The notes: a model not told the origin generated them from the sequence alone. Shown: positions 8,564 through 46,638, counted from the first letter of the stretch. The stretch is 64,000 nucleotides of DNA from Devosia sp. 66-14 (GCF_001899085.1 NZ_MKVB01000006.1:1073492-1137491); one strand, 5' to 3'. Program-made: numbers and translations.

Positions 8564-8649
8564 GGGCACCTCCTCCCTCGCGGCGCCGTCGGGGCACCGA
8601 TGCAGCAGAGAGCGCCCGACCGGATTCGGGGCCGGCCGGGCGCCAGGAC

Positions 8650-9864: not shown

Positions 9865-9953
9865 GATGTGTCTCCTCAATCACAGTTAGTCGTTGGGTCT
9901 TCGGGTTGTTCTTGGTCTTCCGGAGTTCCTCGGCTCCGGCGTCACCACGGCCG

Positions 9954-10748: not shown

Positions 10749-10780
10749 CGCGTCACCAGGTCTCTGCTCGCCGTTCCTCC

Positions 10781-30600: not shown

Positions 30601-30936
30601 TCGGTCGAGCAGTTGCGCAGCGCCATCGAGAGCGCGCGATCGACCGATGACGATTTCGTGGTCGCGGCGCTCGCCATGCCATTCGCACGCGCCCTCATGC
30701 GGCTGGACCGGGCCGGCGAGGCACGGGACGCCATCGCCGCCGCCATCGCCTATTTCCGCCGGATGGCGCTCAAGCCTTATCTCGCCAATGCCTTGATCGT
30801 GCTCGGCGACGTCGCCGATGCGCAGGGCGACGGCACCGCCGCCGCGACAGCCCGCGAAGAGGCCGCAAGCCTGCGCGATGAATTCCGGCTGCCATCGCCG
30901 CCGCCCGCGACGCCCGCTCCGGTGCTGCAGGCCTAG
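27694..30936 (+). CDS. Class III adenylate/guanylate cyclase with N-terminal zinc ribbon, AAA/STAND ATPase and TPR-like C-terminus
   Basis: 'CSKCG...FCANCG', 'VLFADV', 'GDAVLALFG', 'LGDAANVAARLQ', P-loop 'GEAGLGKS', Walker B 'MDDLHWSD', 'EGNPFYLEE'. Confidence 0.9.
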   Translation: MAMQTCSKCGFSNPDSARFCANCGNALEPPRPVEGERRFATVLFADVARSTTIAEQMDPEDWAGIMNGAFAFMNAAVSHYGGTVSRLMGDAVLALFGAPIAHEDDAERAVRAGLEMQEAAMRYAAGIKQQHGVDFDLRVGINTGIAVLAFVGDAIRTEYTALGDAANVAARLQSAAEPGTVLISADTHKLVHALFDFRPRGRIEMKGKAEPVDSYEVAGVRATPGATRGLEGLTSPLVGRAREIGLMRDRLSELGKGTGSVVAVIGEAGLGKSRLIAELKQLRDALPEPRPIWRESRAISYGQSIPYYPWRQLGRLIVGADDMDAAPVVRDKIAAWVARLGLKPTDVPFYETMIAVEGEASRIALSAMSGEAVVNGVAAAIVNAIKAVMHAGGGVVPYVMVMDDLHWSDSATLELIAQVATLAAFEPITLVLILRPDRKAASWQLVDRLQASLGSSFDKIELEPLGAAASGELLSNLLHIEELPESIRQQILERSEGNPFYLEEVLRSLIDGGQVVRDGVHWRATRAILEATIPDTLAGVLSARIDRLPDSTKRVAQTAAVIGRVFQHRVLETICREAPATERIEHVEPHLATLSYEQLVREKAREPEREYIFKHALTCEAAYGLLLRSRRKDLHARCGEALEALFAERRDEFAAMLAHHFEEAGDLPRTLQYARIAAENARRVYAVREELVHRERILATLDRMPDASAADIIDAILEWAWVRNRRGQYDGLLPQVERAVQIARELGDKRRLGLALSWMGNVHMVTGFPSRGFPYLKEAQGLATEIGDDQVLLLPLFIATWSLVERDARSGEEKLAEVIEMARKQDAPDILGHALTYRAMALARLGQFDQANGLIDEALGMISTISSPVKQADVHIGASMAYYDMGDIEKGLEHAHLGADLAMSANGLECACAGYFGVGRGELDRRNIDDALAQFRRSLKLADAVGMDYYINLIRAGVAEAEFEKGTTGSVEQLRSAIESARSTDDDFVVAALAMPFARALMRLDRAGEARDAIAAAIAYFRRMALKPYLANALIVLGDVADAQGDGTAAATAREEAASLRDEFRLPSPPPATPAPVLQA

Positions 30937-30938
30937 CC

Positions 30939-32639
30939 ATGGACAAGCCGGTGATCCTTGCCGTGGATGACGAGCCTTCGGTTCTCGCCGCGGTGGCGCG
31001 TGACCTCAGGCGCCACTACGCAGCCGCATACGACGTGGAGCGCGCCGCTTCGGGAGCCGAGGCGCTGGAGGTGCTCAAGGACCTCAAGCTCGCCGGGCGC
31101 ATCGTGGCGCTGTTCGTGGTGGATCAGCGGATGCCGGAAATGAACGGCGTGACGTTTCTGAGCCGCGCGATGGAGCTCTACCCGGAAGCTCGCCGGGTGC
31201 TGCTGACCGCCTATGCCGATACCGACGCGGCGATCCGGGCGATCAACGAGGTGCGGCTCGACCACTACCTGATGAAACCCTGGCACCCGCCCGAGGAGCA
31301 GCTCTATCCGGTGCTCGACGACCTGCTCGACGACTGGCGCGCCAGCTACCAGCCGGTGTTCGAGGGGGTGCGGGTGATCGGGCACCGCTGGCTGGCCGAC
31401 GGCCATCGGGTGCGCGATTTCCTGGCGAGGAACCTGGTGCCCTATCGCTGGCTCGACATCGAGACCGATGCCGAAGCGGAAACGCTGCGCGGGCTGGCAG
31501 GTGCGGCGGCCGAGCCGCTGCCGCTGGTGATCCTCGCCGACGGGACGGCGCTGTCGCGCCCGACGATCGCCGCGCTGGCCGAACGGCTGGGGCTGCACAC
31601 CCGTGCGACGGCCGAGACCTATGACCTGCTGGTCGTCGGCACCGGGCCGGCCGGGCTGGCAGCGGCGGTGTACGGTGCATCGGAGGGTCTGAGGACGCTC
31701 CTGGTCGAGCGCGAGGCGCCCGGGGGACAGGCCGGCACCAGTTCGCGCATCGAGAATTACCTCGGCTTCCCGGTGGGGCTCAGCGGGGCCGACCTGACGC
31801 GGCGCGGCGTGCAGCAGGCGCGGCGGTTCGGCGCCGAGATCCTGACGCCGGTCGAAGCCGTGCGTCTCGAAACGCAGGACGGCTATCACCTCGTAACGCT
31901 GAGCAATGGCAACACGGTCGCCGCACAGGCGCTGCTGATCGCGACCGGCGTCTCGTACCGGCTGCTGGAGGTACCGGGCGCGGAGCGGCTCTCGGGCGCC
32001 GGGCTCTATTATGGTGCGGCGATGACCGAGGCGATGGGCACTGCCGGACAGGATGTGCTCGTGGTGGGTGCCGGCAACTCGGCGGGGCAAGCGGCACTGC
32101 ACCTGGCACGCTATGCCAGGTCGGTCACGGTGCTGGTACGGGGAAAATCGCTTGCCGACAGCATGTCGCAATACCTGATCGAACGGATCGAGGAGACCGA
32201 GAACGTCGCCGTGCAGACCGGCGCCTCGATCAATGCACTGCTCGGCGAGGAAAGCCTCGAGGCGGCGGCGGTGCTCGACAATGCGACCGGTGCGGTGACC
32301 CAGGTGCCGGCGCGGGCGGCCTTCGTGTTCATCGGCGCTTCACCACGCACCGACTGGCTCAAGGGCAAGCTGCAGCTCGACGCCCAAGGCTTCATTCTGT
32401 CGGGACCGGATCTGGTACGCGAGCCCGGCCGCCGGCCAGACGGCTGGACGCTCGAGCGCGAGCCGTTCTGGCTGGAAACCAGCGTGCCCGGGATCTTCGT
32501 GGCCGGCGACGTGCGGCGGCAATCGACCAAGCGGATCGCTTCGGCGGTCGGCGAGGGGGCGATGGCAGTGACCTTCGTGCACCAGCACCTGCGCGGCCCG
32601 GCTCCCGCGCAACGGCCGCCGCCGGCATCAGGTGGCTGA
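30939..32639 (+). CDS. Response-regulator receiver fused to a thioredoxin-reductase-like FAD oxidoreductase
   Basis: REC motifs 'AVDDE', 'VVDQRMP', 'LTAY', 'MKPW'. TrxB motifs 'VVGTGPAGLAAA', 'GGQAGTSSRIENYLGF', 'VVGAGNSAGQ', 'GIFVAGDV'. Confidence 0.9.
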   Translation: MDKPVILAVDDEPSVLAAVARDLRRHYAAAYDVERAASGAEALEVLKDLKLAGRIVALFVVDQRMPEMNGVTFLSRAMELYPEARRVLLTAYADTDAAIRAINEVRLDHYLMKPWHPPEEQLYPVLDDLLDDWRASYQPVFEGVRVIGHRWLADGHRVRDFLARNLVPYRWLDIETDAEAETLRGLAGAAAEPLPLVILADGTALSRPTIAALAERLGLHTRATAETYDLLVVGTGPAGLAAAVYGASEGLRTLLVEREAPGGQAGTSSRIENYLGFPVGLSGADLTRRGVQQARRFGAEILTPVEAVRLETQDGYHLVTLSNGNTVAAQALLIATGVSYRLLEVPGAERLSGAGLYYGAAMTEAMGTAGQDVLVVGAGNSAGQAALHLARYARSVTVLVRGKSLADSMSQYLIERIEETENVAVQTGASINALLGEESLEAAAVLDNATGAVTQVPARAAFVFIGASPRTDWLKGKLQLDAQGFILSGPDLVREPGRRPDGWTLEREPFWLETSVPGIFVAGDVRRQSTKRIASAVGEGAMAVTFVHQHLRGPAPAQRPPPASGG

Positions 32640-32642
32640 GCC

Positions 32643-34088
32643 ATGTCCGCAGTTGCAGCCGACGCTCGGCAGAGCACCGACCTGATCCGCCAGGTGCCGA
32701 TGTTTGCCGAACTGAGCGAGGCCGAAGCGAGCGAGCTCTGGCATGCCGGCCGGCGGGTCGGGCTCAGCCCCGGCGAGGTGTTCATCCGCGAGGGCGAGCA
32801 AGGCGGTACGCTCTACATTATCCTTGCTGGCGCAGTGGAGGTGACCAAGCGGGACGGCGAGCACGAGGTGACGCTGGCAACGCGCGGGCCCGGGGAGTTC
32901 CTCGGCGAGATGTCCCTCCTCGAACAGGCGCCTCGCACCGCATCGGTGCGAGCCACCGAGCCGAGCCAGGTGCTGGCCATCGGCTCGGAAGCATTCCGCC
33001 AGTTGCTGGCACGGCGACCGGAGGCGGCGGCGACGCTGCTGCGCACCGTGACCTCGCGCCTCAGGAGCACCGAGGCCTCGCTGGTGCAGGCCGACAAGCT
33101 GGCGGCGCTTGGAACGTTGGCGGCGGGGCTCGCGCATGAGCTCAACAATCCCGCCGCCGCGATCCAGCGCTCGACCGGATATCTCAGTGAAGCGTTCGAG
33201 GAGTGGCGCCGCCGGACGGTCGAACTCAGCATGCTGGAGATGACACCCGAGGAGCGGCAGGGGCTGGCGGAACTGGAGCGCAGCATCGCCGATTGCCGGG
33301 CAACGCGCTGCTCCGACGCCGAGGCGCGACGGATCGAGTCGCGGCTGAGCCAGCGGCTCGAAGGGCTCGGAATCGCCGATCCCTGGGAAATCGCCCCGGC
33401 GATGGCCGCCTATGGCTGGTCGGTCGAACGGCTGGAGCCGGTACTGGCCAGCTTTGCCGCAGCGCATGTCACCCCGGTGCTGCACTGGCTGGGGCGCGGG
33501 CTGGCGGCGCAGCAGCTGATGGAAGAGATCGAGGTCGCCTCCAAGGCGATCTCCGGCATCGTCAGGTCGGTGAAGGCCTATGCCTATCTCGACCAGGCGC
33601 CGGTGCAGGATGTCGATATCGCCATGAGCCTCGACGACACGCTGATGATCCTCAATCACAAGCTGAAGCACGGGGTAACGGTGACCCGACTGTACGAGCC
33701 GGCTCTGCCCCGGATCGAGGCCTATGCCGGCGAGCTGAACCAGGTGTGGACCAACCTGATCGACAACGCCGTGCAGGCGATGGATGGGACGGGCCGGCTG
33801 GAAGTCGGCGCCAGGCGACTGGGCGATGAGGTCGAGGTACTGATCGCCGACAGCGGGCCGGGCATCCCCGAGGACGTGGGGCGGCGGATCTTCGAGCCGT
33901 TCTTCACCACCAAGGCACAGGGCGTCGGCACCGGCCTCGGCCTTCACATCGCGCACAACATCGTGGTGAACCGGCACCGCGGGCGCATCAGCTTCAGCTC
34001 CCGCCCCGGGCGGACCGAGTTCCGCATCGTGTTGCCATTGCGGCTGGGCCGCCCAGCGACACCGGAGAAGACCCATGGCGATGGGTGA
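32643..34088 (+). CDS. cNMP-binding-domain sensor histidine kinase
   Basis: cNMP '[10 protein letters not shown]...PRTASV'. H-box 'AHELNNP', N-box '[10 protein letters not shown]', G boxes 'DSGPGI' and 'GTGLGL'. Confidence 0.92.
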
Positions 34089-35884: not shown

Positions 35885-37096
35885 ATGTCGAAGTCGAAGA
35901 ATCCGCTGAACGACGAGAAAAACCGCTCCCCCGCCACCCAGGTCGTGCATGGCGGCACGCAGCGAAGCCAGTTCAAAGAGACCTCGGAAGCGATCTTCAT
36001 GAACTCGGGCTACTCCTACCCGAGCTCGCAATATGCCGAGGACCTGTTCCTCAACAAGATCAACAAACCGGCCCATAATTACTCGCGCTTCGCCAACCCG
36101 ACGATGGACATGTTCCAGGACCGGATGGCGCTGCTCGAAGGCGCGGAAGCCGCGCGGGCCTTCGCCACCGGCATGTCGGCAGTCACCAACGCAGTGATGA
36201 GCCAGGTGCGGGCCGGCGACCACATCGTGGCGGCGCGCGCGCTATTCGGCGGGTGTCGCTATGTCGTCGAGGACCTGATGCCGCGCTTCGGCGTCAACTC
36301 CACGCTGGTCGACGGGCGCGACCCCGAGAACTTCGCCCGGGCGATGCGAGAGAACACCAAGGTGATCTTCATCGAGACGCCGACCAACCCGACGCTGGAA
36401 CTGGTCGACATCGCGGCCGTGGCGAAGATCGCCAAGGCGCATGGCGCCAAGCTGATCGTCGACAACGTGTTCGCCACCGCGCTGTTCCAGAAGCCGTTGC
36501 AGCTGGGCGCGGACCTCGTCACCTATTCGGCGACCAAGCATATCGACGGCCAGGGCCGGGCACTGGGCGGTATCGTTCTGGGGTCGAAGGAACTGATCGA
36601 GGGTGATGTACACACCCTGTTGCGCCAGACCGGGCCGTCATTGTCGCCGTTCAATGCGTGGGTGCTGCTCAAGGGCATCGAGACGCTGCCGATCCGCGTC
36701 AGGCAGATGACCGAGGGCGCGACTAAGGTGGCCGACTTCCTCGCCGGGCACCCCAAGATCGAGCGCGTCTCCTACCCGTTCCACCCCTCGCACCCGCAAT
36801 ACGAACTGGCCAAGCGGCAGATGAAGAGCGGTTCGACGCTGGTGGCGTTCGAGGTCAAGGGTGGGCGCGAGGCGGCGTTCACGCTGTCGGACTCGCTGGC
36901 GGTGATCCTGATCTCCAACAACCTCGGAGATGCCAAATCGCTGATCACCCATCCGGGCACCACCACCCATGCCCGGTTCACCGAGGAGGTTCGGCTGGAA
37001 TCGGGCATCACCCCGGGCCTGCTGCGGCTTTCGGTGGGGCTCGAGGACGCCGATGACCTGATCAAGGACCTCGAATACGGGCTGAGCCAGGTCTAG
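35885..37096 (+). CDS. metZ: O-succinylhomoserine sulfhydrylase
   Basis: 'ETSEAIFMNSGY', 'YSRFANPT', PLP lysine 'YSATKHIDGQGR', 'SNNLGDAKSLITHP'. SAM-II leader. Confidence 0.93.
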   Translation: MSKSKNPLNDEKNRSPATQVVHGGTQRSQFKETSEAIFMNSGYSYPSSQYAEDLFLNKINKPAHNYSRFANPTMDMFQDRMALLEGAEAARAFATGMSAVTNAVMSQVRAGDHIVAARALFGGCRYVVEDLMPRFGVNSTLVDGRDPENFARAMRENTKVIFIETPTNPTLELVDIAAVAKIAKAHGAKLIVDNVFATALFQKPLQLGADLVTYSATKHIDGQGRALGGIVLGSKELIEGDVHTLLRQTGPSLSPFNAWVLLKGIETLPIRVRQMTEGATKVADFLAGHPKIERVSYPFHPSHPQYELAKRQMKSGSTLVAFEVKGGREAAFTLSDSLAVILISNNLGDAKSLITHPGTTTHARFTEEVRLESGITPGLLRLSVGLEDADDLIKDLEYGLSQV

Positions 37097-37197
37097 GGCG
37101 AGGTGTCCGGCCTGACGCAATCTGCGAGTGCAGACGGCGTCGGGCCGGCGGATCGCAGCGCGGCCGGGCGCATCTTGCCGACGACGCGGCGAACGGC

Positions 37198-37779
37198 TCA
37201 TTGCGGCTCGACCGGCGCCTGCCAGAACGGGCCGCGCATCCACTGGTCGCGGAACAGCTCGAAGTTGACGAAGTCGATAATCTCGCCGGTCACCGGGTTC
37301 TGCTTATGGCGATGCCAGGTGCCGACATGGTCGAAGCCCAGACGGCGATAGCTGAAGATCGACGCGGCGTTGCGGGAATCGACCACCCCATAGAAGCGCT
37401 CGACGCCGCAATGGGCAAAGAAGTGGTTCAGCAGGCGGGCTCGCACCTCGACCACAACGTTCCTGCCCCACCAGGTGCGGTCATGCACGGCGACGGTGCC
37501 GAAGGCCGAGCGATAGCCTTGCAGCCGCACCATATGCGCGCCGATGGGCACCTGCTCACCCTTGGGGATGATGGCAAAAGCGAAACGGTTGCGAGTGCGC
37601 GGCAGCGGCCCGCGCAGCAGCCAGTGCCCAAGCGAGCGAGGCTTGGACGTCTGCATCAGGCCGGTGAGAATCTCCGGATCGTGGCGCCAGCTATTGGTGA
37701 CGCGCACGGCCTCGATCAGCCCCATGGGCTTGAGGATGAAGCGTTCGGTTTCAAGCGGACCGACGACCAGCTTGCTCAT
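37198..37779 (-). CDS. RimJ/RimL-type GNAT N-acyltransferase (last gene of the RiPP operon)
   Basis: 'LETERFILKP', 'WWGRNV', 'NAASIFSYRRLGF'. ATGA overlap with the upstream ligase. Confidence 0.8.
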   Translation of the reverse strand: MSKLVVGPLETERFILKPMGLIEAVRVTNSWRHDPEILTGLMQTSKPRSLGHWLLRGPLPRTRNRFAFAIIPKGEQVPIGAHMVRLQGYRSAFGTVAVHDRTWWGRNVVVEVRARLLNHFFAHCGVERFYGVVDSRNAASIFSYRRLGFDHVGTWHRHKQNPVTGEIIDFVNFELFRDQWMRGPFWQAPVEPQ

Positions 37780-39173
37780 TGCCGTTCGACCATGGCGCGG
37801 ACATCGGCGCGCACGATCTTGCCGCGATCATTGCGCGGGATCGCCGCCACCGCGAACAGCCTCGAGGGCACGGCCTCGTCGCGCACACGGGCCCGGCACC
37901 AGGCCTTCAACGCCTCGGGATCGAACGATGCTCCGTCAGCGAGGACGATTGCCGCGGCCACGGCCTCGCCGGCAATGGCATCCGGAATGCCGAAGGCACA
38001 GGCCTCGGCGATCGCCTCATGCCGCTCGAGCAGCATGTCGATCTCCTCGGCCTGGATCTTGATGCCGCCGCGGTTGATCTCGGATTTGCTGCGGCCGACG
38101 AGGATGAGGTTGCCGGCCTGGTCCAGCTCGCCGATGTCGCCGGTGCGGAACCAGCCATCGACGAACGCGGCCTCGTCGAGGTCGGGGCGTTGCCAGTAAC
38201 CCAGCATCATCGAGGGGCTTTGCACCAGCACCTCGCCGCGTCCCGCGGCATCGGCGGCGATGGCGACGTTGCCGCCCCAGAGCCGGCCGACATAGCCGTC
38301 GCGCGCCTCGGCCTCGTCGAGACTGCCGCCGGCGATCCAGTTGGCGGTTTCGGTCATGCCGAACATGTTGAACACCTGGCGCGTGCCGCACCACTCGGCG
38401 ATGGCGCGCCAGTGTTCGATGGAGAGCGGGGCCGAGCCGACATGGACGCGCTCCAGCACCGGGCCGGGACGCGCCGAGACGCGCAGCGCCAGCTTCCAGA
38501 ATGACGGCACCGAACTCATGAAGCTGATGCGGTTGGCCGTCAGATAGCCGGCGAGGCCGGCGAGTTCGCCGAGCGCCGGACTCGGCCACAGGTGTACCCG
38601 TCCACCGGCCAGCAGCGGGGTCAGGACGTTGCCGATCAGCCCATGGCCAAAGAACACCGGCAGCACGCAGAGGCTTTCGCGCAGGGTATGGGGGCCGATC
38701 TCGGCGCTGTTCAAAGCGGCGCGGGCAAGCAGGCTGCGCACCGAATGGACGATGCCCTTGGGCCTCCCGGTGGTGCCGGAGGTCATCAGGATAAGAGCCG
38801 GATCATCGAGGCGCAGCGGCCTCGGCTCCCCCTGCTCCGGAGCGCCGCTGGCCGGCCGCTGCGGGCCGAGCCAGATCGAGGCACCGGTGGCCTGCAGCAC
38901 GTTCTCGCACTCTTCAGACCTGAGGCCGGGATTGACCGCGACAGCGACGAGGCCGACCTCCCAGCAGGCGAAGATGGCAACGAGATAGTCGACAGGATTG
39001 GGCTCGGCCACCACCGCCCGGGCGCCTGGCCTTAGGCCGCGGCCCGTCAGTTCGGCGGCCTTGTCGCCCACCCGCCGGCGGATGCCTTCCGCGCTCAGCG
39101 CCGCGCCGCCCCTCACATCGACCAGGGTCGCGGCTGCAGGAAGCATGGCAGTGAACGAGAGGTTCCGGATCAT
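37776..39173 (-). CDS. AMP-dependent synthetase/ligase (ANL) in the RiPP operon
   Basis: 'ILMTSGTTGRPKG', 'FGMTET', 'WFRTGDIG', 'INRGGIKI', 'PRNDRGK'. ATGA overlaps at both ends. Confidence 0.9.
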   Translation of the reverse strand: MIRNLSFTAMLPAAATLVDVRGGAALSAEGIRRRVGDKAAELTGRGLRPGARAVVAEPNPVDYLVAIFACWEVGLVAVAVNPGLRSEECENVLQATGASIWLGPQRPASGAPEQGEPRPLRLDDPALILMTSGTTGRPKGIVHSVRSLLARAALNSAEIGPHTLRESLCVLPVFFGHGLIGNVLTPLLAGGRVHLWPSPALGELAGLAGYLTANRISFMSSVPSFWKLALRVSARPGPVLERVHVGSAPLSIEHWRAIAEWCGTRQVFNMFGMTETANWIAGGSLDEAEARDGYVGRLWGGNVAIAADAAGRGEVLVQSPSMMLGYWQRPDLDEAAFVDGWFRTGDIGELDQAGNLILVGRSKSEINRGGIKIQAEEIDMLLERHEAIAEACAFGIPDAIAGEAVAAAIVLADGASFDPEALKAWCRARVRDEAVPSRLFAVAAIPRNDRGKIVRADVRAMVERQ

Positions 39174-40144
39174 CCAGCGCCTCGCGGGACGATGCGCTGC
39201 AGGCCACGGAAGGTGTGGCGGCGGACCTTGGAGAAGAACGCCGTGGGGGCGGCGAGCACCGCGGCGCCATCGACCAGCCGGGTTGCAAAGCCGCTGGCAC
39301 TGCCGCCGTCGATACGACCGCCGGCGGCATGGGCGGCGGGAGCGTCGAACAGTTCGGCGATCAATTCGAGGCAGAGGCGCGCCTCGAGCCCGAGGCCCAG
39401 CCGGCGCGCCATCTCCGGCAACAGGGCGACTTCATCGGGCGAGAGGTGGCGCCAGGCCTGCAGCACGTCGACCAGCAGCCGAAGCTGGTGGAACTTGTGA
39501 CCCAGTGCGGCATGGACCACGGCGACGAAGAACTGCGGCAGGCCGGCGCTCGCGTCACCCCGGCCGCTGGCCATGAACTCGGCATAGCCGAAGCTGATGC
39601 GCCGGCGCAGGCCCTGGTAGTGCACCAGGTTGCCATGCACCTCGATCAGCAGTGCATCCATGTCGGGCTGGATCCACTTTTCTTCCTGGTTCTGTTCGGT
39701 GTGGTCGAGCAGCGGTTTCAGGAACAGCCGATAGCCGAGCCCGGTCAGCAGGTCGCCGATCGGGGCGCGGGCCGAGGGCGCCACCATGATGTCGATATCG
39801 GTGAAGGGTCGATCCGACGGTGCCGGATAGATCTGCCGGGCAAAGACCGGGCCCTTGACGATCACCGCCTCGAGGCCGTTCTCGGCGATATGGCGGTCGA
39901 CCTTGGCGGCGATGCCGCGCAGGTGCATCGACAGGCCGACCAGCAGGGTCAGCTCGCCCTGCGCCTCCCGAAGCGCGGCAGTGCTGTGCTGGGGAGCGAG
40001 CTTGCGCGTCACGACGGGCAGCACATTGTGGTCACGCGCCAGCTGCAGCAGTGGGTCGACCAGTTCCGCCGGGACGGTGGCGGCCGGCGCCTCAGGGTCG
40101 GCCAGGGTGCACACCAGCGTGTCGAGCCGGGCGATCATCATCAT
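39170..40144 (-). CDS. Nucleotidyltransferase of the type found in RiPP/lasso clusters (PF14907-like)
   Basis: 'IVKGPVFARQIYP..SDRPFTDIDIMV', 'IEVHGNL', 'HAALGHKF..LRLLVDV'. Confidence 0.8.
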   Translation of the reverse strand: MMMIARLDTLVCTLADPEAPAATVPAELVDPLLQLARDHNVLPVVTRKLAPQHSTAALREAQGELTLLVGLSMHLRGIAAKVDRHIAENGLEAVIVKGPVFARQIYPAPSDRPFTDIDIMVAPSARAPIGDLLTGLGYRLFLKPLLDHTEQNQEEKWIQPDMDALLIEVHGNLVHYQGLRRRISFGYAEFMASGRGDASAGLPQFFVAVVHAALGHKFHQLRLLVDVLQAWRHLSPDEVALLPEMARRLGLGLEARLCLELIAELFDAPAAHAAGGRIDGGSASGFATRLVDGAAVLAAPTAFFSKVRRHTFRGLQRIVPRGAG

Positions 40145-41136
40145 GCAACGATCTTTTCGATGTTGAGCGCCGCCAGCATGACCGGTGTGAGGTCGGTCGG
40201 ATCGGACCCGGCGGACAGCCGATAGGCGGGCACGGCTCGCACCAGGTCACCGAGCCGCCTGAACAGTTCGCGCTCGCCCTTGGGCACACCGACCCTGGTG
40301 GAACGCACGTTGTCGGCGGCGGCGAGGGCAAGCACCTCGGCCTTGCTGGTCGGCTCGCAGCGGCTCGTCGTCTCGCCGCTGCGCTCCAGCACGAGAACCG
40401 CCGCGATCTCGCGCGCGGCGATGCTCTCGACGCTGACCGTGGTCCTCAGCGCCGCGAGGGTCACCGGCCGCTCGTCCTCGGCGCTCCACTCGCCACTCAG
40501 CAGCGGTTTCACCCAGGGCAGCATTTCGGCGGTGCGGCGATGCACCTTGAGGTTTCGCGGCATGCCCCAGGCGGTCGGCCGGTCAGCGCCGACATTGCAG
40601 GCCATGGCATCGTCGGAGCAGAGACCCAGGCCCCCGGCGGCCAGCGCCAGGGTCGAAGTGGTCTTGCCGGCGCCACTGCGGCCGAAGATCAGCGCCACGC
40701 GACCATCAGGCAGGGTCAGCCCGGCGGCGTGGACGAGAAACTGGTTCGCGGCCAGCAGCGCCGCCTGCAAGGCAAGCTGCCCGCAGGTCATGACGATCCG
40801 CTCCTCGGCCCCCGGGGCGACGATGATGGTCGCCTCGCGCGCCGTATCGGACAGGGTGAGCGAAATGACGCCCGGAAACGCCAGGACGCGTTCCTGCGGT
40901 GCCTGCCAGAAGCAGGCCTCGCCCTCGTCGAGGATCGGCCCCTGATACAATGGGTCGGTGCCCTGCGGCATCGCCAGCGGCTCGCCCGAGGTGATGGTGA
41001 GTCCGAAGGCCAGCGGAGCGGTCGGCAGGGGGCGCGAGCGGCCGGCGAAGATACGGCCGAAGAAATCCACCAGCACCGGCTGTATGGCGGTGACCCGCAG
41101 CGAGGCGCCCTGCAGGTCGAAGAACTTCTGGATCAA
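40141..41136 (-). CDS. HPr-kinase-like P-loop kinase (RiPP Ser kinase type)
   Basis: 'VHAAGL...ALIFGRSGAGKTT...LCSDD', the HprK-like His, P-loop and DD signature. Confidence 0.82.
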   Translation of the reverse strand: MIQKFFDLQGASLRVTAIQPVLVDFFGRIFAGRSRPLPTAPLAFGLTITSGEPLAMPQGTDPLYQGPILDEGEACFWQAPQERVLAFPGVISLTLSDTAREATIIVAPGAEERIVMTCGQLALQAALLAANQFLVHAAGLTLPDGRVALIFGRSGAGKTTSTLALAAGGLGLCSDDAMACNVGADRPTAWGMPRNLKVHRRTAEMLPWVKPLLSGEWSAEDERPVTLAALRTTVSVESIAAREIAAVLVLERSGETTSRCEPTSKAEVLALAAADNVRSTRVGVPKGERELFRRLGDLVRAVPAYRLSAGSDPTDLTPVMLAALNIEKIVA

Positions 41137-41606
41137 ACTCTGGCTCCGTGCGGGTCCGCCGGCCCGACCGCCGGGGCGGCGTGCACATGAATCTGCACCT
41201 GGCCGGGGATGCGGGCATTGATGACTTCAACGCCGTCCAGCGTCACCCAGCAATGCGCTGAAAGGCTCGGCCGGCCGATGGATTTGGGGTCGACGGAAAA
41301 ATGCAGGCGTGGCTCGTAGCCGCAACGACGCAAGGCGGCGAAGCCGACCAATCCGCTGCGCAGGCACCGATTGTTGCGCATCAGGATGGGCCAGCGCGCC
41401 GCACGCCGTACCGAGCGGGCGATGTAGGAGACCGGAAAGCGCGGCCAGCTATGGGGCGGCACCGCCGAGACGTCGCTCAGTATCTGGGAGAACTCGCGGC
41501 CTGCGATACGTGCCGGAAGCGTTCGCGCCGCGATCCACAGCCGTAAACGAAATGCCAGCCGATCGAGGGACCCGGCGCCGGCCTGTTCTGCCGGCTCACG
41601 CGGCAT
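41133..41606 (-). CDS. Lasso-type B2 leader peptidase (transglutaminase-like)
   Basis: Catalytic 'RCLRSG' Cys and 'SAHCWV' His. ATG 41606 overlaps the PqqD 3' end. Confidence 0.85.
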   Translation of the reverse strand: MPREPAEQAGAGSLDRLAFRLRLWIAARTLPARIAGREFSQILSDVSAVPPHSWPRFPVSYIARSVRRAARWPILMRNNRCLRSGLVGFAALRRCGYEPRLHFSVDPKSIGRPSLSAHCWVTLDGVEVINARIPGQVQIHVHAAPAVGPADPHGARV

Positions 41607-41865
41607 GCACGATGATGCCTTCAGCAACCAGCCCGGCGATCAGTTCCGGCAGGTCGTCGGCCAGCGTGGCGGCGTCGACCTCGAACTCATCGGCCATGCG
41701 ATGCGCCACGGCTTCGACGTTGCGGACGCCGTCGAGATGCTTGAGGAAACAGAGCGAGGTGTCGTTGCACGAATAGAGCTGCCCGCTGCCAAGCAGGAGG
41801 ATGACAGCGCCCTCCCCCACCGGTTCGAACGAAACTTCGTCGCCGAGGCGGTACACTGCATCCAT
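41596..41865 (-). CDS. PqqD-family RiPP recognition element (B1/RRE)
   Basis: 89 aa. 'GEGAVILLLGSGQLYSCNDTS...LDG...VAHRMADEFEV...DDL..LIAGLVAEGII'. Confidence 0.88.
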   Translation of the reverse strand: MDAVYRLGDEVSFEPVGEGAVILLLGSGQLYSCNDTSLCFLKHLDGVRNVEAVAHRMADEFEVDAATLADDLPELIAGLVAEGIIVHAA

Positions 41866-41896
41866 TCACGCACCAGAAATTCAAGACAAACAGGGT

Positions 41897-41918
41897 CGGG
41901 GCCGGAGAGCCGGCCCCG
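41897..41918 (-). terminator. GC hairpin between the last precursor and the RRE gene (attenuator or mRNA stabiliser)
   Basis: 9-bp stem CGGGGCCGG-agag-CCGGCCCCG starting 5 nt after the precursor stop, followed by 'ctgtttgtctt' on the minus strand. Confidence 0.6.
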
Positions 41919-41923
41919 CGCAA

Positions 41924-42013
41924 TCACACCGGCGGAGTTTTGCTCGTCGCAGCAGAAATCGCTGCAAGCTTCTGCTCTTTGACGATGGTCGGCTTGGCGT
42001 AGACCTTCTTCAC
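41924..42013 (-). CDS. RiPP precursor A6, MKKVYAKPTIVKEQKLAAISA-ATSKTPPV (29 aa)
   Basis: Manually translated. GTG start 7 nt after AGGAGG, TGA at 41924-41926, YxKPxI leader. Confidence 0.88.
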   Translation of the reverse strand: MKKVYAKPTIVKEQKLAAISAATSKTPPV

Positions 42014-42149
42014 GTTCAGTCCTCCTGCAATCTGCCCCAATGCAGATTTCTGGCAGCCTATCACGATCCGGCCGCGAACTCACACCCGAACGAAAGAGCC
42101 CCGCCCCCGCGTACCGATGCGGTCGTTACGCGACGAGACGGCGCCGCAA

Positions 42150-42233
42150 TCAGAACGGCTTGCTGCTCACAGCGGTGATCGCCACGAGTTTCTGGTCCTT
42201 GACCAGCGTCGGCTTGCTGTAGTGCTTCTTCAT
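42150..42233 (-). CDS. RiPP precursor A5, MKKHYSKPTLVKDQKLVAITA-VSSKPF (27 aa)
   Basis: Manually translated. Purine-rich RBS (GGGGATGAAG) and conserved leader. Confidence 0.88.
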   Translation of the reverse strand: MKKHYSKPTLVKDQKLVAITAVSSKPF

Positions 42234-42297
42234 CTTCATCCCCAAATCGCCCAGATCGGACCGACTCGAGCCGGTCCAATTCGCCACATCCACCAGA

Positions 42298-42393
42298 CTA
42301 TTGTTGGGGCATTTTGCTGGAAACCGGCACAGCCGTAATGGCAGCCAGTTTCTGCTCTTTGACCAGAGCCGGCTTCGTGTACGTCTTCTTCAT
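42298..42393 (-). CDS. RiPP precursor A4, MKKTYTKPALVKEQKLAAITA-VPVSSKMPQQ (31 aa)
   Basis: Manually translated. GGGGGA RBS, TAG at 42298-42300. Confidence 0.88.
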   Translation of the reverse strand: MKKTYTKPALVKEQKLAAITAVPVSSKMPQQ

Positions 42394-42513
42394 GGTTATC
42401 CCCCAACCTACACGCTCACGGTGCAGATCTTCAGACTAGCAGAAGTTGCGCCCGTCCGGACAATCACTTCTTTGCTGTCATCGACAAGGGATCGGCGACC
42501 CCGAGTCTTATCG

Positions 42514-42600
42514 TCAGCCAGCCGGTTTGCTGACAACAGCAGTGATAACCGCGAGCTTCTGGTTCTTGACCAGCGTCGGTTTCGTGTAGGTCTTCTTCAT
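42514..42600 (-). CDS. RiPP precursor A3, MKKTYTKPTLVKNQKLAVITA-VVSKPAG (28 aa)
   Basis: Manually translated. GAGAGGGA RBS and conserved leader. Confidence 0.88.
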   Translation of the reverse strand: MKKTYTKPTLVKNQKLAVITAVVSKPAG

Positions 42601-42650
42601 CTGCATCCCTCTCAAGACGGCCTATCGGGTCCGGATGACACCGGACGCGA

Positions 42651-42746
42651 TCACGGAGGCGGAGCTTTGCTCGAAATCGGAGCTGCTGTGATGGAGGTCA
42701 GCTTCTGCTCTTTGACAAGAGCCGGCTTGGAATAGGTCTTTTTCAT
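42651..42746 (-). CDS. RiPP precursor A2, MKKTYSKPALVKEQKLTSITA-APISSKAPPP (31 aa)
   Basis: Manually translated. AGGGA RBS and conserved leader. Confidence 0.88.
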   Translation of the reverse strand: MKKTYSKPALVKEQKLTSITAAPISSKAPPP

Positions 42747-42874
42747 CATCATTCCCTATGCGCGCCCCCAAGGCGCGACGACGGCAGAGTAACAGAACCG
42801 ATGCAGATCGGAAAACCCGGTTGTCTTGCTGTCACCAGGAAAAGGAGACCGGAGCGATGCCCCGGCCCCTCAGG

Positions 42875-42964
42875 TCACGTCACCTTGCTGGAAATCGGCT
42901 CGGCGGTGATCGAGGTGAGCTTCTGCTCTTTGACAAGCACAGGCTTGGTATAGGTCTTTTTCAT
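42875..42964 (-). CDS. RiPP precursor A1, MKKTYTKPVLVKEQKLTSITA-EPISSKVT (29 aa)
   Basis: Manually translated. GGGA RBS and conserved leader. Confidence 0.88.
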   Translation of the reverse strand: MKKTYTKPVLVKEQKLTSITAEPISSKVT

Positions 42965-43046
42965 AGTATGTCCCAAAAATTCCCCTGCACAACCAGCAGG
43001 GTAGCAGGGAAACTACCTGAGTCGGCCGACCCCGCAACCGCTCCGT

Positions 43047-43271
43047 CTAGATTTTGCGGTACAGCATGACCCGCTGGGCGAGTCCCCTGCCCTCGAAGCG
43101 CGTCACCTCGGCCACCAGGTTGACCGGACGCCCATCGAGCGCCAGCGGCGCGTCGGTCAGCCGGCGCGCCGCCGCAATCGGTTCGGGCGCTTCGACCGTC
43201 TGCGGCAGGCTGACGCTGGGGGGCTTGGCTCGATAGTCGTAGAGCGTGACGGTGTATCGGGGCATCGGCAT
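43047..43271 (-). CDS. Small hypothetical protein (about 72-76 aa) upstream of the precursor array
   Basis: 3' part of track ORF 43047..43790, 'MPMPRYTVTLYDYR...VMLYRKI', with high GC3 codon usage. Start could be 43265, 43271 or 43277. Confidence 0.5.
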   Translation of the reverse strand: MPMPRYTVTLYDYRAKPPSVSLPQTVEAPEPIAAARRLTDAPLALDGRPVNLVAEVTRFEGRGLAQRVMLYRKI

Positions 43272-43457
43272 TCTCATCGGCTGCTGTGCGGTCGCGACGA
43301 GCGACCATAGCCTCCGGCAGCTGACAGGTTGCTGAACCCCGCGCGTCCTCACGCACCTTGCGAAGAATTCACCCACCTTACCAAGCCCTAATGCGACTTC
43401 TTGATCTCGGCGCTCTACTTTAGGTGCGATGGGTATTTGGGCTTTGCAGGTGCGGCG

Positions 43458-44681
43458 ATGAAGCGGTGGTTGAAGTGGATTGTCCTGGTGGTCCTGCTCG
43501 GCGCAGCCGGCGCGGGCTGGCTGGTGTTCAGCGCCCCCGCCAAGGATGAGGTGCCGCGCACGACGCCGGTGGCCCGCGGCAATGTCGAAGAAACCGTCCT
43601 CGCCTCGGGCGTGATCCAGGCCAGTTCGCTGGTCAGCGTCGGCGCCGAGGTCTCGGGCCGGATCAAGACGCTCAATGTCGCCCTGGGCGACGACGTGAAG
43701 GCCGGCGACGTGATCGCCGAGATCGACTCGCTGAACCAGGAGAACGCGGTGAAGGCGGCGCAGGCGGCGCTCGCCAACACCGAGGCGCAAAAGACCATCC
43801 AGACCGCCAATCTGGGCCAGGCGAGAACCGCGCTGGACCGGGCGGAAAAGCTCAGCCCGCAGAAACTGATCTCAGATGCCGACCTGCAGACGGCCCAGTT
43901 GGCGGTGCAGACCGCCGAAGGACAGCTGCAGGCGATCGACGCGCAGATCCAGCAGGGGCAGATCAACGTCGAGGCGGCGCAGCTCAATCTCGATCGCACC
44001 AAGATTGTCGCGCCGTCGGACGGCACGGTCGTGGCGGTGTCGGTGGAAGTCGGCCAGTCGGTCAATGCCAACAATTCCTCGCCGACCATCGTCAAGCTCG
44101 CCAACCTCGACAAGATGGTGGTGAAGGCGGAAATCTCGGAGGCCGACGTGCCGCGGGTGGAGCCCGGGCAGCAGGTCTATTTCACCATCCTCGGCGATCC
44201 CGACACGCGCATCAATGCGACCCTGCGGGCGGTCGAGCCGGCGCCGGATTCGATCGCCTCGGACGACACGTCGTCGAGCTCGTCGGCCACCGCGGTCTAT
44301 TACAACGGCCTGTTCGACGTCGATAATCCCGGCCACAAGCTGCGCATCTCGATGACCGCACAGGTGACGATCGTGCTCAAGTCGGTCGACGACGTGCTGA
44401 CCGTGCCCGCCTCGGTGCTGGGCCGGAAGGGTCGCGACGGCAACTACCTCGTGCAGGTCTGGGACCAGCAGAAGGGCGCGGTCGAGCCCAGGAAGGTCAG
44501 TGTCGGGCTCAACAACAACGTGACGGCCGAGGTGCTGGACGGGCTCAGCGAAGGCGACCTGGTGGTCAACGGCACCGCCGCCGCGCCGGCAGCCCGTACC
44601 GGCAACGCGCAAGGCGGCGGCAACCGGAACATCCTCACCGGCGGCGGACCGCCGGTCGGAGGGTTCGGGCGCGGAGGCTGA
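43458..44681 (+). CDS. macA: MacA-family periplasmic adaptor subunit
   Basis: N-terminal TM, 'VSVGAEVSGRIKTL', 'TKIVAPSDGTV', 'KAEISEADV', 'LRISMTAQV'. Confidence 0.9.
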   Translation: MKRWLKWIVLVVLLGAAGAGWLVFSAPAKDEVPRTTPVARGNVEETVLASGVIQASSLVSVGAEVSGRIKTLNVALGDDVKAGDVIAEIDSLNQENAVKAAQAALANTEAQKTIQTANLGQARTALDRAEKLSPQKLISDADLQTAQLAVQTAEGQLQAIDAQIQQGQINVEAAQLNLDRTKIVAPSDGTVVAVSVEVGQSVNANNSSPTIVKLANLDKMVVKAEISEADVPRVEPGQQVYFTILGDPDTRINATLRAVEPAPDSIASDDTSSSSSATAVYYNGLFDVDNPGHKLRISMTAQVTIVLKSVDDVLTVPASVLGRKGRDGNYLVQVWDQQKGAVEPRKVSVGLNNNVTAEVLDGLSEGDLVVNGTAAAPAARTGNAQGGGNRNILTGGGPPVGGFGRGG

Positions 44682-44685
44682 GGCC

Positions 44686-46638
44686 ATGACCGAGCCGCTG
44701 ATTTCCATCCGGAAGCTCCGCCGCGAGTATCCGATCGGCACCGAGAGCATCACGGTGCTCAAGGATATCGACCTCGACATCGAGGCCGGCGAGATGATCG
44801 CCATCATCGGACAATCCGGCTCCGGCAAGTCGACATTGATGAACGTGCTCGGCTGCCTCGATAATGGCTGGACCGGCGAATACCGGCTCGCCGGACGCGA
44901 CATCGCGCGGCTCAAGCCCGATGAGCTGGCCGAGCTCCGGCGCGAGCATTTCGGTTTCATCTTCCAGCGCTACCAATTGCTGGCCGATCTCGATGCGCTG
45001 GAAAATGTCGAAGTGCCGGCGATCTATGCCGGTGCGCGCAAGCAGGCGCGGCGCGAGCGGGCGCACAAGCTGCTGGAGCGGCTGGGTCTGGGCGAGCGGC
45101 TGACGCACCGGCCGAACGCCCTGTCCGGCGGCCAGCAGCAACGTGTCAGCGTGGCGCGCGCGCTGATCAATGGCGGCGAGGTGATCCTCGCGGACGAACC
45201 CACCGGGGCGCTCGATTCACGGAGCGGCAAGGAGCTCATGGCGTTGCTCAAGGAGCTCAATGCCGAAGGGCATACCATCATCATCGTCACGCACGACCCC
45301 ACGGTGGCGGCACAGGCCGACCGGGTGGTCGAGCTGAGCGACGGCGTGATCGTCGCCGACCGCCGCAAGGATGGAGTCGATGCCCCGGCCGGCCGGTCCG
45401 GCGACGCCATCAAGCGGATTCCGCGCTGGCGCGAAGCGATCGACCGGGTCGGCGAAGCCTTCCAGATGGCGCTCAGGGCGCTGTCGAGCCATCGCCTGCG
45501 CACCTTTCTCACCATGCTCGGCATCATCATCGGCATCGCCTCGGTGGTGTCAGTGGTGGCGCTGGGGCAAGGCAGCCAGCAGGCGGTGCTCGACCGGATC
45601 AGTTCGATCGGCACCAACACCATCAACATCCTGCCCGGCACCAATGCCGCAGACCGGCGACGCGACGCGATCCGCACGCTGGTGCCGGCCGATGCGGCGG
45701 CGATCGCCGCGGAAAGCTACGCCGACAGCGTGACCCCGCAGGTCTCCAGCAACGGCCAGGCGCGCTATCGCAACGTCAGCGCCGCCGCGCAGGTGCAGGG
45801 CGTCGGGCCCGACTATTTCCGGGTCAACAATCGCAGCTTCGTCGAGGGTGCGGCATTCGATACGGCCAGCACCAGCGCGCTGGCGCAGGTGGCGGTGATC
45901 GACACCACGGCGCGCGACACGCTGTTCACCAACGGCGAAGATGCGGTCGGGCAAGTGGTGCTGGTCGGCAATGTGCCGCTCAGGATCATCGGCGTGGTCG
46001 CGGCGAGCACCAACAATTTCGGGCCGCAATCGAACTCGATCAGCATCTGGATGCCCTACACCACCGCGATGTCGCGGATCCTGGGGCAGAGCTGGCTGTC
46101 GACGATCACGGTCCGTGTCGCCGACACAGCCGACGTCACCGAGGCGCAGGCGGAGATCCAGGCGCTGCTCGAGCAGCGGCACGGCACGGTGGATTTCAGC
46201 CTGCAGAACACCGACACCATTCGCGAGACCATCCAGTCGACCTCGCAGACGCTGACGCTGCTGATCTCGGCCATTGCCGTGATCTCGCTGATCGTGGGCG
46301 GCATCGGGGTGATGAACATCATGCTGGTGTCGGTGCGCGAGCGGACCCGCGAGATCGGCGTGCGCATGGCGGTCGGGGCCCGGCAGGGTGATATCCTGCA
46401 GCAGTTCCTGATCGAGGCGGTGCTGGTCTGCCTGATCGGCGGCACGGTCGGTGTGCTGTTGTCGCTGGGCATCGGCTTCGGCGTCGAGCGGCTGATGAGC
46501 GGGCTCACCTTCATCTACTCGCCGGCGACGATCATCGCGGCGTTCGTCTCGTCGAGCCTGATCGGCGTGCTGTTCGGCTTCATGCCGGCGCGTTCGGCGG
46601 CGCGCCTCGACCCGGTGGTGGCGCTGGCCAGCGAGTGA
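44686..46638 (+). CDS. macB: MacB-family ABC exporter (ATPase + permease fusion)
   Basis: 'GQSGSGKST', 'LSGGQQQRV', 'ILADEPTGALD', 'LTMLGIIIGIASVV', 'GGIGVMNIMLVSVRERTREIG'. Confidence 0.95.
   Translation: MTEPLISIRKLRREYPIGTESITVLKDIDLDIEAGEMIAIIGQSGSGKSTLMNVLGCLDNGWTGEYRLAGRDIARLKPDELAELRREHFGFIFQRYQLLADLDALENVEVPAIYAGARKQARRERAHKLLERLGLGERLTHRPNALSGGQQQRVSVARALINGGEVILADEPTGALDSRSGKELMALLKELNAEGHTIIIVTHDPTVAAQADRVVELSDGVIVADRRKDGVDAPAGRSGDAIKRIPRWREAIDRVGEAFQMALRALSSHRLRTFLTMLGIIIGIASVVSVVALGQGSQQAVLDRISSIGTNTINILPGTNAADRRRDAIRTLVPADAAAIAAESYADSVTPQVSSNGQARYRNVSAAAQVQGVGPDYFRVNNRSFVEGAAFDTASTSALAQVAVIDTTARDTLFTNGEDAVGQVVLVGNVPLRIIGVVAASTNNFGPQSNSISIWMPYTTAMSRILGQSWLSTITVRVADTADVTEAQAEIQALLEQRHGTVDFSLQNTDTIRETIQSTSQTLTLLISAIAVISLIVGGIGVMNIMLVSVRERTREIGVRMAVGARQGDILQQFLIEAVLVCLIGGTVGVLLSLGIGFGVERLMSGLTFIYSPATIIAAFVSSSLIGVLFGFMPARSAARLDPVVALASE

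Follow-up and report, generated by a model that had tools for sequence, protein, structure and literature searches.

A kinase followed by a nucleotidyltransferase, both acting on a serine of a lasso peptide precursor, is an arrangement with precedent (PMC6993621, PMC9266682). In pseudomycoidin, a homologous pair of this kind adds a phosphate and then a hexose to the serine, with the nucleotidyltransferase step requiring the kinase (PMC6993621), and a His-Lys-Asp-Asp signature has been described for the lasso-tailoring kinases (PMC9266682). GNAT enzymes that acylate peptides made on ribosomes and modified after translation (RiPPs; PMC8784127) and GNAT enzymes that depend on a carrier protein (PMC11685415) are also on record, and works cited in PMC13647313 add goadvionin GdvG and the lipoavitides as further GNAT acylation systems. 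Here we analysed a 64,000-nucleotide (nt) stretch of DNA from Devosia sp. 66-14 (GCF_001899085.1, NZ_MKVB01000006.1:1073492-1137491), referred to below as the window and numbered from its first letter, in which six small open reading frames (ORFs) are followed by six larger enzyme ORFs on the minus strand (37198-42964). We consider it probable that these genes form a working RiPP operon of a widespread family, descended from lasso machinery, which would follow the pathway set out below without a macrolactam synthetase.

The ORF listing of the window, together with Pfam and NCBIfam searches, bears out the arrangement that an earlier note on this DNA had read at these coordinates, namely six precursor genes (block 41924-42964) and six enzyme genes that overlap end to start (block 37198-41865), all on the minus strand (Table 1). 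The enzyme genes encode, in order, a PqqD-family protein of the RiPP recognition element (RRE) type, a lasso-type B2 cysteine peptidase, a putative P-loop kinase, an NTP_transf_5 nucleotidyltransferase (NTase), an ANL adenylate-forming ligase and a GNAT. Overlaps of 4 nt (NTGA) join B2 to the kinase, which starts at a TTG, the kinase to the NTase, the NTase to the ANL ligase and the ANL ligase to the GNAT; PqqD and B2 overlap by 11 nt if B2 begins at the ATG at 41606, or by 32 nt if it begins at the TTG at 41627. A purine-rich Shine-Dalgarno-like stretch lies 5' of each of the six precursors. The same note had treated the six enzymes as one set and its list turned out to be incomplete: the remnant of a carrier gene and a 76-aa ORF upstream of the precursors had been overlooked, and only RRE, B2, kinase and NTase constitute the conserved core (28 loci), the ANL ligase and GNAT being an accessory pair found together in 12 non-redundant loci.

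The extent of the family was established by a genome scan with the kinase alignment, which yielded 54 loci that were searched with the six window proteins and whose neighbouring ORFs were clustered (locus numbers are given as L plus three digits). PqqD-B2-kinase-NTase with short precursors upstream is present in 28 non-redundant loci, distributed over Alphaproteobacteria (Devosia, Oricola, Notoacmeibacter, several Hyphomicrobiaceae, Prosthecomicrobium and Ancylobacter) and over Burkholderiaceae/Oxalobacter, Phycisphaerae, Brocadiaceae, Verrucomicrobiota, Desulfuromonadales and Syntrophobacteraceae. One further cyclase-less core locus occurs in Mesorhizobium. The kinase has homologs of 80-90% identity annotated as Devosia, and Devosia insulae DS-56 is collinear with the window, at 84-89% nucleotide identity. 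An exhaustive profile search recovered 212 full-length kinase clusters (50% identity) at E<=1e-30, so the family is not rare.

The core enzymes retain their catalytic residues. B2 matches PF13471 (Transglut_core3) at E 8.9e-12 and the NCBIfam model NF033537 (lasso_biosyn_B2) at 47.8 bits vs a cut-off of 33, and its Cys (in RCLRSG) and His (in HCW) are invariant in 28/28 sequences. In the kinase, H136, the Walker A motif SGAGKTT at 154-160 (with K158), D175 and D176 are conserved in an alignment of 15 sequences, and the structural model, with a predicted local distance difference test score (pLDDT) of 91, matches phosphoenolpyruvate (PEP) carboxykinases at E 3e-9. HPr kinase is absent among the fold matches listed for this model; PEP carboxykinases and HPr kinase belong to one P-loop kinase superfold. 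Comparison of the kinase profile with PDB sequences gave P-loop-level matches only, and the protein scores 26.6 (HprK_rel_A) and 26.2 bits with the NCBIfam models for HprK-related kinases A and B, vs cut-offs of 200; L030 reaches 40 bits. Close homologs of the window kinase bear a precomputed Pfam assignment to PF27840 'ScmC'.

In the NTase, the aspartates of the DxD motif (D116 and D118) are invariant. Its model (pLDDT 95.8) has weak matches only (E ~0.02), the nearest being MenT1, LnuA and ANT(2'')-Ia, which share the Pol-beta fold and transfer nucleotides to hydroxyl groups. PsmN has likewise been reported to resemble ANT(2'') (PMC6993621). NTase homology alone does not define the family, given the contexts of two other homologs: in Hoeflea (L061) the gene stands without other cluster genes, and in a Rhodobiaceae metagenome-assembled genome (L062, 9001-15779) it lies by an HPAT-PqqD fusion, a 2-oxoglutarate-Fe(II) oxygenase and a 686-aa protein without a Pfam match. 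The latter locus also has a 60-aa ORF and another PqqD-domain protein, and it resembles a distinct and unrelated RiPP-like cluster employing this NTase family.

The precursors carry a lasso-type leader in front of cores that are not of lasso type. In the window, a 21-residue N-terminal leader (KKxYxKPxLVKxQKLxxIxA) is near-identical in all six precursors, which diverge after it; the cores that follow the T-A end of the leader are 6-10 aa long, all contain Lys and none has Asp or Glu at positions 7-9. Among 67 precursors collected from the 28 loci, the lasso spacing is kept without exception (aromatic residue at -17, as in Y-17, Pro at -14 and Leu, Val or Ile at -12), Thr occupies position -2 in 48 precursors, the others having Val, Ala, Ser, Ile or Met there, and position -1 holds Ala in 50 and Glu in 13. 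A leader with Ile at -2 is known to function (PMC10368454). Family cores are 5-24 aa long (median 9), and only 3/67 are at least 13 aa long with Asp or Glu at positions 7-9. The sole constant core feature is a Ser or Thr (67/67), usually within a small motif such as SSK, VSG, TSG, DSG, VTD or ISP, which fits a target of the kinase and NTase. This conserved residue is internal, as a C-terminal Ser occurs in 0/6 window cores and in 3/67 family cores. On these features, the pattern is that of a presumptive product library around one modified hydroxyl residue and not that of lasso cores.

No asparagine-synthetase-like cyclase (PF00733) was found in the 64 kb window. The check comprised ORFs of at least 480 aa with coding-like GC content at third codon positions, a regular expression for the PP-loop motif SGGxDS, and phmmer with two Asn_synthase-domain proteins taken from distant loci, which gave no match in the window. 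The large ORFs encode cytochrome oxidase subunit I, an adenylate-cyclase/AAA/TPR protein, a response-regulator/flavoprotein-reductase fusion, a histidine kinase, an amidase, PstC, PstA and a MacB-like ABC protein (44686-46638), the last identified by reading its translation rather than by a domain scan. The SGGxDS match at 10781-12103 proved to be an alpha-L-fucosidase, and that in L028 to be NadE. Likewise, no Asn_synthase-like gene lies within 10 kb of the 28 core loci or in the Mesorhizobium locus. The gaps of 1.4-1.7 kb between B2 and kinase in L022, L026 and L027 were considered as cyclase sites and hold none, containing instead a radical-SAM gene on the opposite strand (L026 and L027) or further precursors (L022). 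Asn_synthase-domain proteins occur near only the most remote kinase relatives (L055 and L056; 25-42% identity over part of the protein). Because a macrolactam synthetase is missing from the window and from the related loci and the cores are too short and lack an acidic acceptor, the product cannot be a lasso. The components on which the earlier note had built its reading, a lasso-type leader with RRE and B2, no cyclase beside the kinase, and short cores unable to form a lasso, thus all stand, and no description of such a RiPP type was found in open-access papers, preprints or NCBIfam.

In the pathway that we propose, the PqqD-type RRE would bind the YxxPxL leader of each precursor, the PEP carboxykinase/HprK-fold kinase would phosphorylate the conserved core Ser/Thr, and the NTP_transf_5 enzyme would further decorate the phosphorylated site with a nucleotide or, as in pseudomycoidin, with a hexose. 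The B2 peptidase would then cut after Thr(-2)-Ala(-1), and the outcome would be a small library of linear, decorated peptides of 6-10 residues. The products are thus likely to be short linear peptides that are phosphorylated and further decorated on Ser/Thr and, in relatives, N-acylated. We also put forward, more as a working proposal that may or may not hold in full, that the family represents a new RiPP class, in which RRE and B2 are uncoupled from ring formation and joined permanently to a kinase and an NTase that would place a phospho-nucleotidyl or phospho-glycosyl mark of the phosphodiester type on an internal Ser/Thr in hypervariable peptides of 5-15 residues, in at least 12 bacterial lineages, with carrier-dependent N-acylation, B12-radical-SAM and formyltransferase steps as options.

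Several points weigh against this pathway. Every chemical step and the biological role are inferred. The fold matches of the NTase are weak, and NTP_transf_5 chemistry is not settled even in pseudomycoidin. Characterised lasso kinases modify a C-terminal Ser, whereas the Ser here is internal, and B2 would have to cleave without a partner cyclase. No dedicated exporter is conserved across the family, and the carrier gene is missing in the window. The depth of RNA contigs, considered below, is a crude measure of expression in which DNA carry-over is possible, and the literature check on novelty covered open-access papers and preprints only.

The ANL ligase of the accessory module (AMP-binding and AMP-binding_C domains, 1.3e-53 in Pfam) has as its nearest solved structures oxalate-CoA ligase, FadD13 and feruloyl-, malonyl- and succinylbenzoyl-CoA ligases, which act on oxalate, malonate, succinylbenzoate, ferulate and fatty acids. 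The GNAT has no match when its sequence is compared with the PDB, and in a protein database of ~5.8 billion sequences it has only 33 homologs, all orthologs. Among related loci the GNAT is always accompanied by the ANL ligase and by a carrier protein, a small ORF of ~72-77 aa directly after the GNAT that was found by ORF clustering, contains the motif AWDSLGHM and matches PP-binding PF00550 at E 1.5e-4, above Pfam's cut-off. A hidden Markov model (HMM) built from nine copies detects an intact carrier in 11/11 other ANL/GNAT loci and gives no match in the window. There, the distance from the GNAT stop to the convergent metZ stop is ~100 nt vs ~200 nt in Devosia insulae; what is left of the carrier gene is a recognisable 5' part, after which ~110 nt with the Ser attachment site (WDSL) have been lost, and no frame stays open. 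Contigs from four DNA metagenome runs reproduce this junction exactly, so the deletion is not an assembly slip.

A stand-alone ANL-GNAT-carrier triad was also observed in L063 (7655-9824; GNAT 49% identical), adjoining a serralysin-like RTX metalloprotease, with no RRE, B2, kinase or NTase near it. This triad, together with the restriction of GNAT homologs to orthologs, indicates that ANL, GNAT and carrier form a load-and-transfer module of their own, which part of the family has recruited. Since a phosphopantetheine-type carrier belongs to the triad, the module points to carrier-dependent acyl transfer and not to cyclisation driven by the ANL ligase. In loci with the complete triad, within a subfamily to which this Devosia lineage belongs, the carrier would be charged with an acid by the ANL ligase, and the RimJ/RimL-type GNAT would pass the acyl group on to the newly formed alpha-amine. 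The newly freed N-terminus is a likelier acyl acceptor than Lys for two reasons: N-terminal acylation is the activity of RimJ/RimL enzymes, and outside Devosia the cores of ANL/GNAT loci do not conserve Lys. Lys as acceptor was considered and set aside: it is enriched in the cores of ANL/GNAT loci (26/36 vs 6/27), but Devosia and its close relatives account for the excess, and several of the other ANL/GNAT loci have no Lys in their cores. With its carrier gene broken, acylation may not occur in the window strain, which would either have lost the step or rely on another carrier or on acyl-CoA. Of the earlier claim of short non-lasso peptides modified on Ser and acylated or cyclised on Lys or the N-terminus, the first part agrees with the constant Ser/Thr and the missing cyclase, and for the second the module points to carrier-dependent acyl transfer, more likely to the N-terminus, in place of cyclisation.

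The RimJ/RimL affiliation of the GNAT could also be read in another way. The C-terminal domain of MccE belongs to the same family, and the peptides might be microcin C-like Trojan-horse peptide-nucleotides, nucleotidylated on Ser, with the GNAT providing self-immunity by acetylating the toxic processed product. The heptapeptide-like size of the peptides, the NTase and the MacAB efflux pair adjoining the operon in Devosia are in line with this idea, but we regard it as improbable: a Pfam scan detected no ThiF domain among the six window enzymes and there is no MccB/ThiF-type enzyme, a C-terminal Asn is lacking in the window cores (and present in one of the 67 cores only, in L005), and the GNAT is tied to the ANL ligase and carrier, which acetyl-CoA-dependent immunity would not need, and is missing from most loci. 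Alternatively, the ANL ligase could substitute for the cyclase, adenylating a peptide carboxylate to give a head-to-tail or Lys-linked macrolactam, as ANL enzymes and lasso cyclases activate carboxylates alike and every window core has a Lys. Against this stand the absence of the ANL ligase from more than half of the family loci, its travelling with carrier and GNAT even where RiPP genes are lacking, which is a load-and-transfer pattern, and the cores of the ANL-positive loci of Oricola, L015 and L016, in which Lys is not conserved; cyclisation by this route appears quite unlikely. Hardly better placed is the view that the precursors serve as scaffold, or are consumed as substrate, in making a small molecule or cofactor, in the style of pyrroloquinoline quinone or mycofactocin. 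It would account for a PqqD-type RRE and for very short cores with one constant residue, but for a cofactor one would expect the core not to vary, and several precursors per locus with hypervariable cores around a Ser/Thr are the pattern of a product library and not of a cofactor.

Returning to the proposed RiPP operon, we asked whether it is under selection and transcribed. For all six enzyme genes, the ratio of nonsynonymous to synonymous substitution rates (dN/dS) against three Devosia relatives is 0.05-0.26 (0.05-0.15 for PqqD), and the housekeeping neighbours metZ and macA give 0.05-0.11. Several independent studies yielded bioreactor, wastewater or alga-associated metagenomes and metatranscriptomes that contain sequence identical to the window (36600-43800, runs X1-X31), and the strain appears to be common in communities of this kind. 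RNA contigs of 100% identity from the alga-associated metatranscriptomes cover the precursor array at a depth of 10-33; word depth falls downstream of the array, to 0-6 over the enzyme genes. This fits a highly transcribed precursor array with lower read-through into the enzymes. GC-rich hairpins follow precursors 1 and 6, with energies that are statistically unremarkable (z ~-1.8), and terminator-like sites are no commoner than in shuffled sequences; the hairpin at 41885-41918 may be a leaky terminator or attenuator. A scan for sigma-70 promoters returned no match.

Selection, conserved catalytic residues and transcription together indicate that this is no decaying locus. That the operon is an old lasso cluster, deprived of its cyclase and losing its function by drift, a possibility that the earlier note had itself raised, is therefore very unlikely: every part save the cyclase is lasso-like, Asn_synthase-domain proteins lie near the remote kinase relatives L055 and L056 and one gene of the window, the carrier, has truly decayed, but 28 loci from several phyla preserve this cyclase-less core intact, dN/dS of the enzyme genes against the Devosia relatives is as given above, catalytic residues are invariant, the precursors of the window are transcribed, and short cores occur throughout the family. 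True lasso peptides made by a cyclase encoded elsewhere in the genome are hardly credible either, for although the cyclase search in this genome covered the 64 kb window only and a lasso cluster can do without some of its parts, as pseudomycoidin shows (PMC6993621), cores of 6-10 aa without Asp/Glu at 7-9 are all that the window encodes, only 3/67 family cores have a length of at least 13 aa and an acidic residue at these positions, and no locus has a cyclase within 10 kb.

Additional genes differ from branch to branch of the family, which fits RiPPs whose core chemistry is fixed and whose tailoring varies. A B12-binding radical-SAM gene directly follows the NTase in L022, L026, L027, L028, L029 and L030, which are planctomycetotal, verrucomicrobial and deltaproteobacterial loci whose leaders end in T-E, not T-A; weak NCBIfam matches of the protein include P-methyltransferase families. 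Between B2 and kinase, a further radical-SAM gene is present in L026 and L027. In two Burkholderiales loci, a formyltransferase-domain protein (Fmt/ArnA-like) is encoded between kinase and NTase (L013, 8039-9064, minus strand; L019, 10760-11824, minus strand). In the Mesorhizobium locus (L059/L060, genes at 8216-11849), PqqD, B2 and kinase lie on one strand and the NTase is convergent to them; a PIG-L-family deacetylase is also encoded, and the single recognisable precursor (396-521; leader and core MKKYEKPTLVKAARLQALTA and QQVSSQPPVDDNSDGSGTDVN) lies ~8 kb from the NTase and ~11 kb from PqqD.

In the surroundings of the window operon, the 76-aa ORF directly 5' of the precursor array (MRMPMPRYTVTLYDYRAKPP...YRKI) is found at the same position in four Devosia loci with 69-79% aa identity and was not found in other genera; RNA contigs cover it minimally, and its membership in the operon is uncertain. 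Divergent from the precursors is a MacA/MacB-type efflux pair (43401-46638, plus strand), which is a possible candidate exporter; it is syntenic in the Devosia loci and is not kept beside the cluster in other genera. On the plus strand at 27694-34088, three consecutive genes resemble a cyclic-nucleotide signalling set, comprising a 1080-aa adenylate/guanylate cyclase with AAA and TPR domains, a fusion of a response regulator with a pyridine-nucleotide-disulphide oxidoreductase, and a histidine kinase with a cNMP-binding domain.

Table 1. Features of the operon and its borders in the window. Precursor coordinates refer to likely starts; precursor sequences are given as leader / core.
Feature	Position	Strand	Sequence or basis
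Precursor 1	42875-42964	-	MKKTYTKPVLVKEQKLTSITA / core EPISSKVT; inside RNA contig 41547-42962
Precursor 2	42651-42752	-	(MM)MKKTYSKPALVKEQKLTSITA / core APISSKAPPP; ORF, Shine-Dalgarno-like stretch, RNA contig
Precursor 3	42514-42606	-	MQMKKTYTKPTLVKNQKLAVITA / core VVSKPAG; ORF, Shine-Dalgarno-like stretch, RNA contig
Precursor 4	42298-42393	-	MKKTYTKPALVKEQKLAAITA / core VPVSSKMPQQ; weak NCBIfam lasso_cyano match (E 0.008); RNA contig
Precursor 5	42150-42239	-	MKMKKHYSKPTLVKDQKLVAITA / core VSSKPF; ORF, Shine-Dalgarno-like stretch, RNA contig
Precursor 6	41924-42013	-	VKKVYAKPTIVKEQKLAAISA / core ATSKTPPV; GTG start at 42013 after AGGAGGA; RNA contig
GC-rich hairpin	41885-41918	-	between precursor 6 and PqqD; 9-bp GC stem, -21 kcal/mol, z -1.8
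PqqD-family RRE (B1-like)	41596-41865	-	PF05402, 4.6e-12 (Pfam); beside B2 in 28 loci
Lasso-type B2 cysteine peptidase	41133-41627 (TTG) or 41133-41606 (ATG)	-	PF13471; NF033537
PEP carboxykinase/HprK-fold P-loop putative peptide kinase	40141-41136	-	PF27840 'ScmC' in close homologs; model fold
NTP_transf_5 nucleotidyltransferase	39170-40144	-	PF14907, 1.2e-23
ANL adenylate-forming ligase (accessory module)	37776-39173	-	PF00501 and PF13193
RimJ/RimL-type GNAT (accessory module)	37198-37779	-	PF13302 Acetyltransf_3, 1e-9
Carrier-protein (PP-binding) gene remnant	37097-37201	-	synteny and alignment with relatives
76-aa ORF	43047-43277	-	directly 5' of precursor array; conservation in Devosia

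Cumulatively, the gene content and precursor features suggest RiPP biosynthesis with lasso-derived parts and a non-lasso product. Our search of open-access papers and preprints retrieved lasso reviews and the pseudomycoidin paper and no description of cyclase-less RRE-B2-kinase-NTase clusters; 'ScmC' appeared in the open-access literature only as unrelated acronyms. NCBIfam (June 2026) holds no model for the kinase, NTase, precursors or carrier, and the source annotations of homologs read 'hypothetical' or 'nucleotidyltransferase family protein'. The entry PF27840 'ScmC' shows that the fold family of the kinase has been catalogued, not the RRE-B2-kinase-NTase system. If our interpretation is correct, the lasso leader machinery is not bound to lasso formation and constitutes a portable recognise-and-cut module that has been reused in evolution for very short and heavily decorated peptides, and a RiPP class has been overlooked by current lasso rules, which miss such loci because they require a cyclase. 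The family would then offer a tractable system for the action of NTP_transf_5 enzymes on phosphorylated peptides, a question still open for pseudomycoidin, and, as six different cores are served by one enzyme set, naturally permissive enzymes for making phospho-, nucleotidyl- or acyl-peptides. Since cultured Alphaproteobacteria that live with plants and algae (Devosia, Mesorhizobium, Oricola) have members of the family, direct tests could be made for a role in signalling or competition.

Compared with known systems, the locus resembles microcin C in having a ribosomal peptide of heptapeptide size, a nucleotide-transferring enzyme and a RimL-type GNAT nearby, but the window has neither a MccB/ThiF-type adenylyltransferase nor a C-terminal Asn, and its leader, RRE and peptidase follow another logic. 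The HprK-related kinases A and B (TIGR04352 and TIGR04355) and PF27840 are likewise PEP carboxykinase/HprK-type kinases beside PqqD-family proteins in putative RiPP cassettes; the window kinase, far under the 200-bit cut-offs, is a member of neither TIGR family. To our knowledge, the TIGR04352, TIGR04355 and PF27840 systems are bioinformatic gene neighbourhoods without known products. With carrier- or acyl-donor-dependent GNAT systems (selidamides, PMC8784127; SbzI of altemicidin, PMC11685415) the family shares, in relatives of the window locus, a GNAT, an activating enzyme and a small carrier by RiPP genes, although the GNAT here is of RimJ/RimL type, the ANL ligase stands alone, polyketide or fatty acid synthases are absent and the carrier of the window is broken. 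PadeK, PsmK and PsmN of paeninodin and pseudomycoidin, to which the window kinase and NTase are likened by description rather than by sequence comparison, similarly combine a His/Lys/Asp/Asp kinase and a Pol-beta-type DxD NTase beside B1/B2; those enzymes decorate the C-terminal Ser of a lasso made by a cyclase, whereas the Ser/Thr in the window is internal to a core of 6-10 residues. Finally, unlike lasso biosynthesis with split B1/B2, the window operon has no Asn-synthetase-like macrolactam synthetase, and its cores are short and without an acidic ring acceptor, yet it shares with lasso biosynthesis the exact leader spacing, a PqqD-type RRE and a B2 protein that scores above the NF033537 cut-off and carries the Cys and His.

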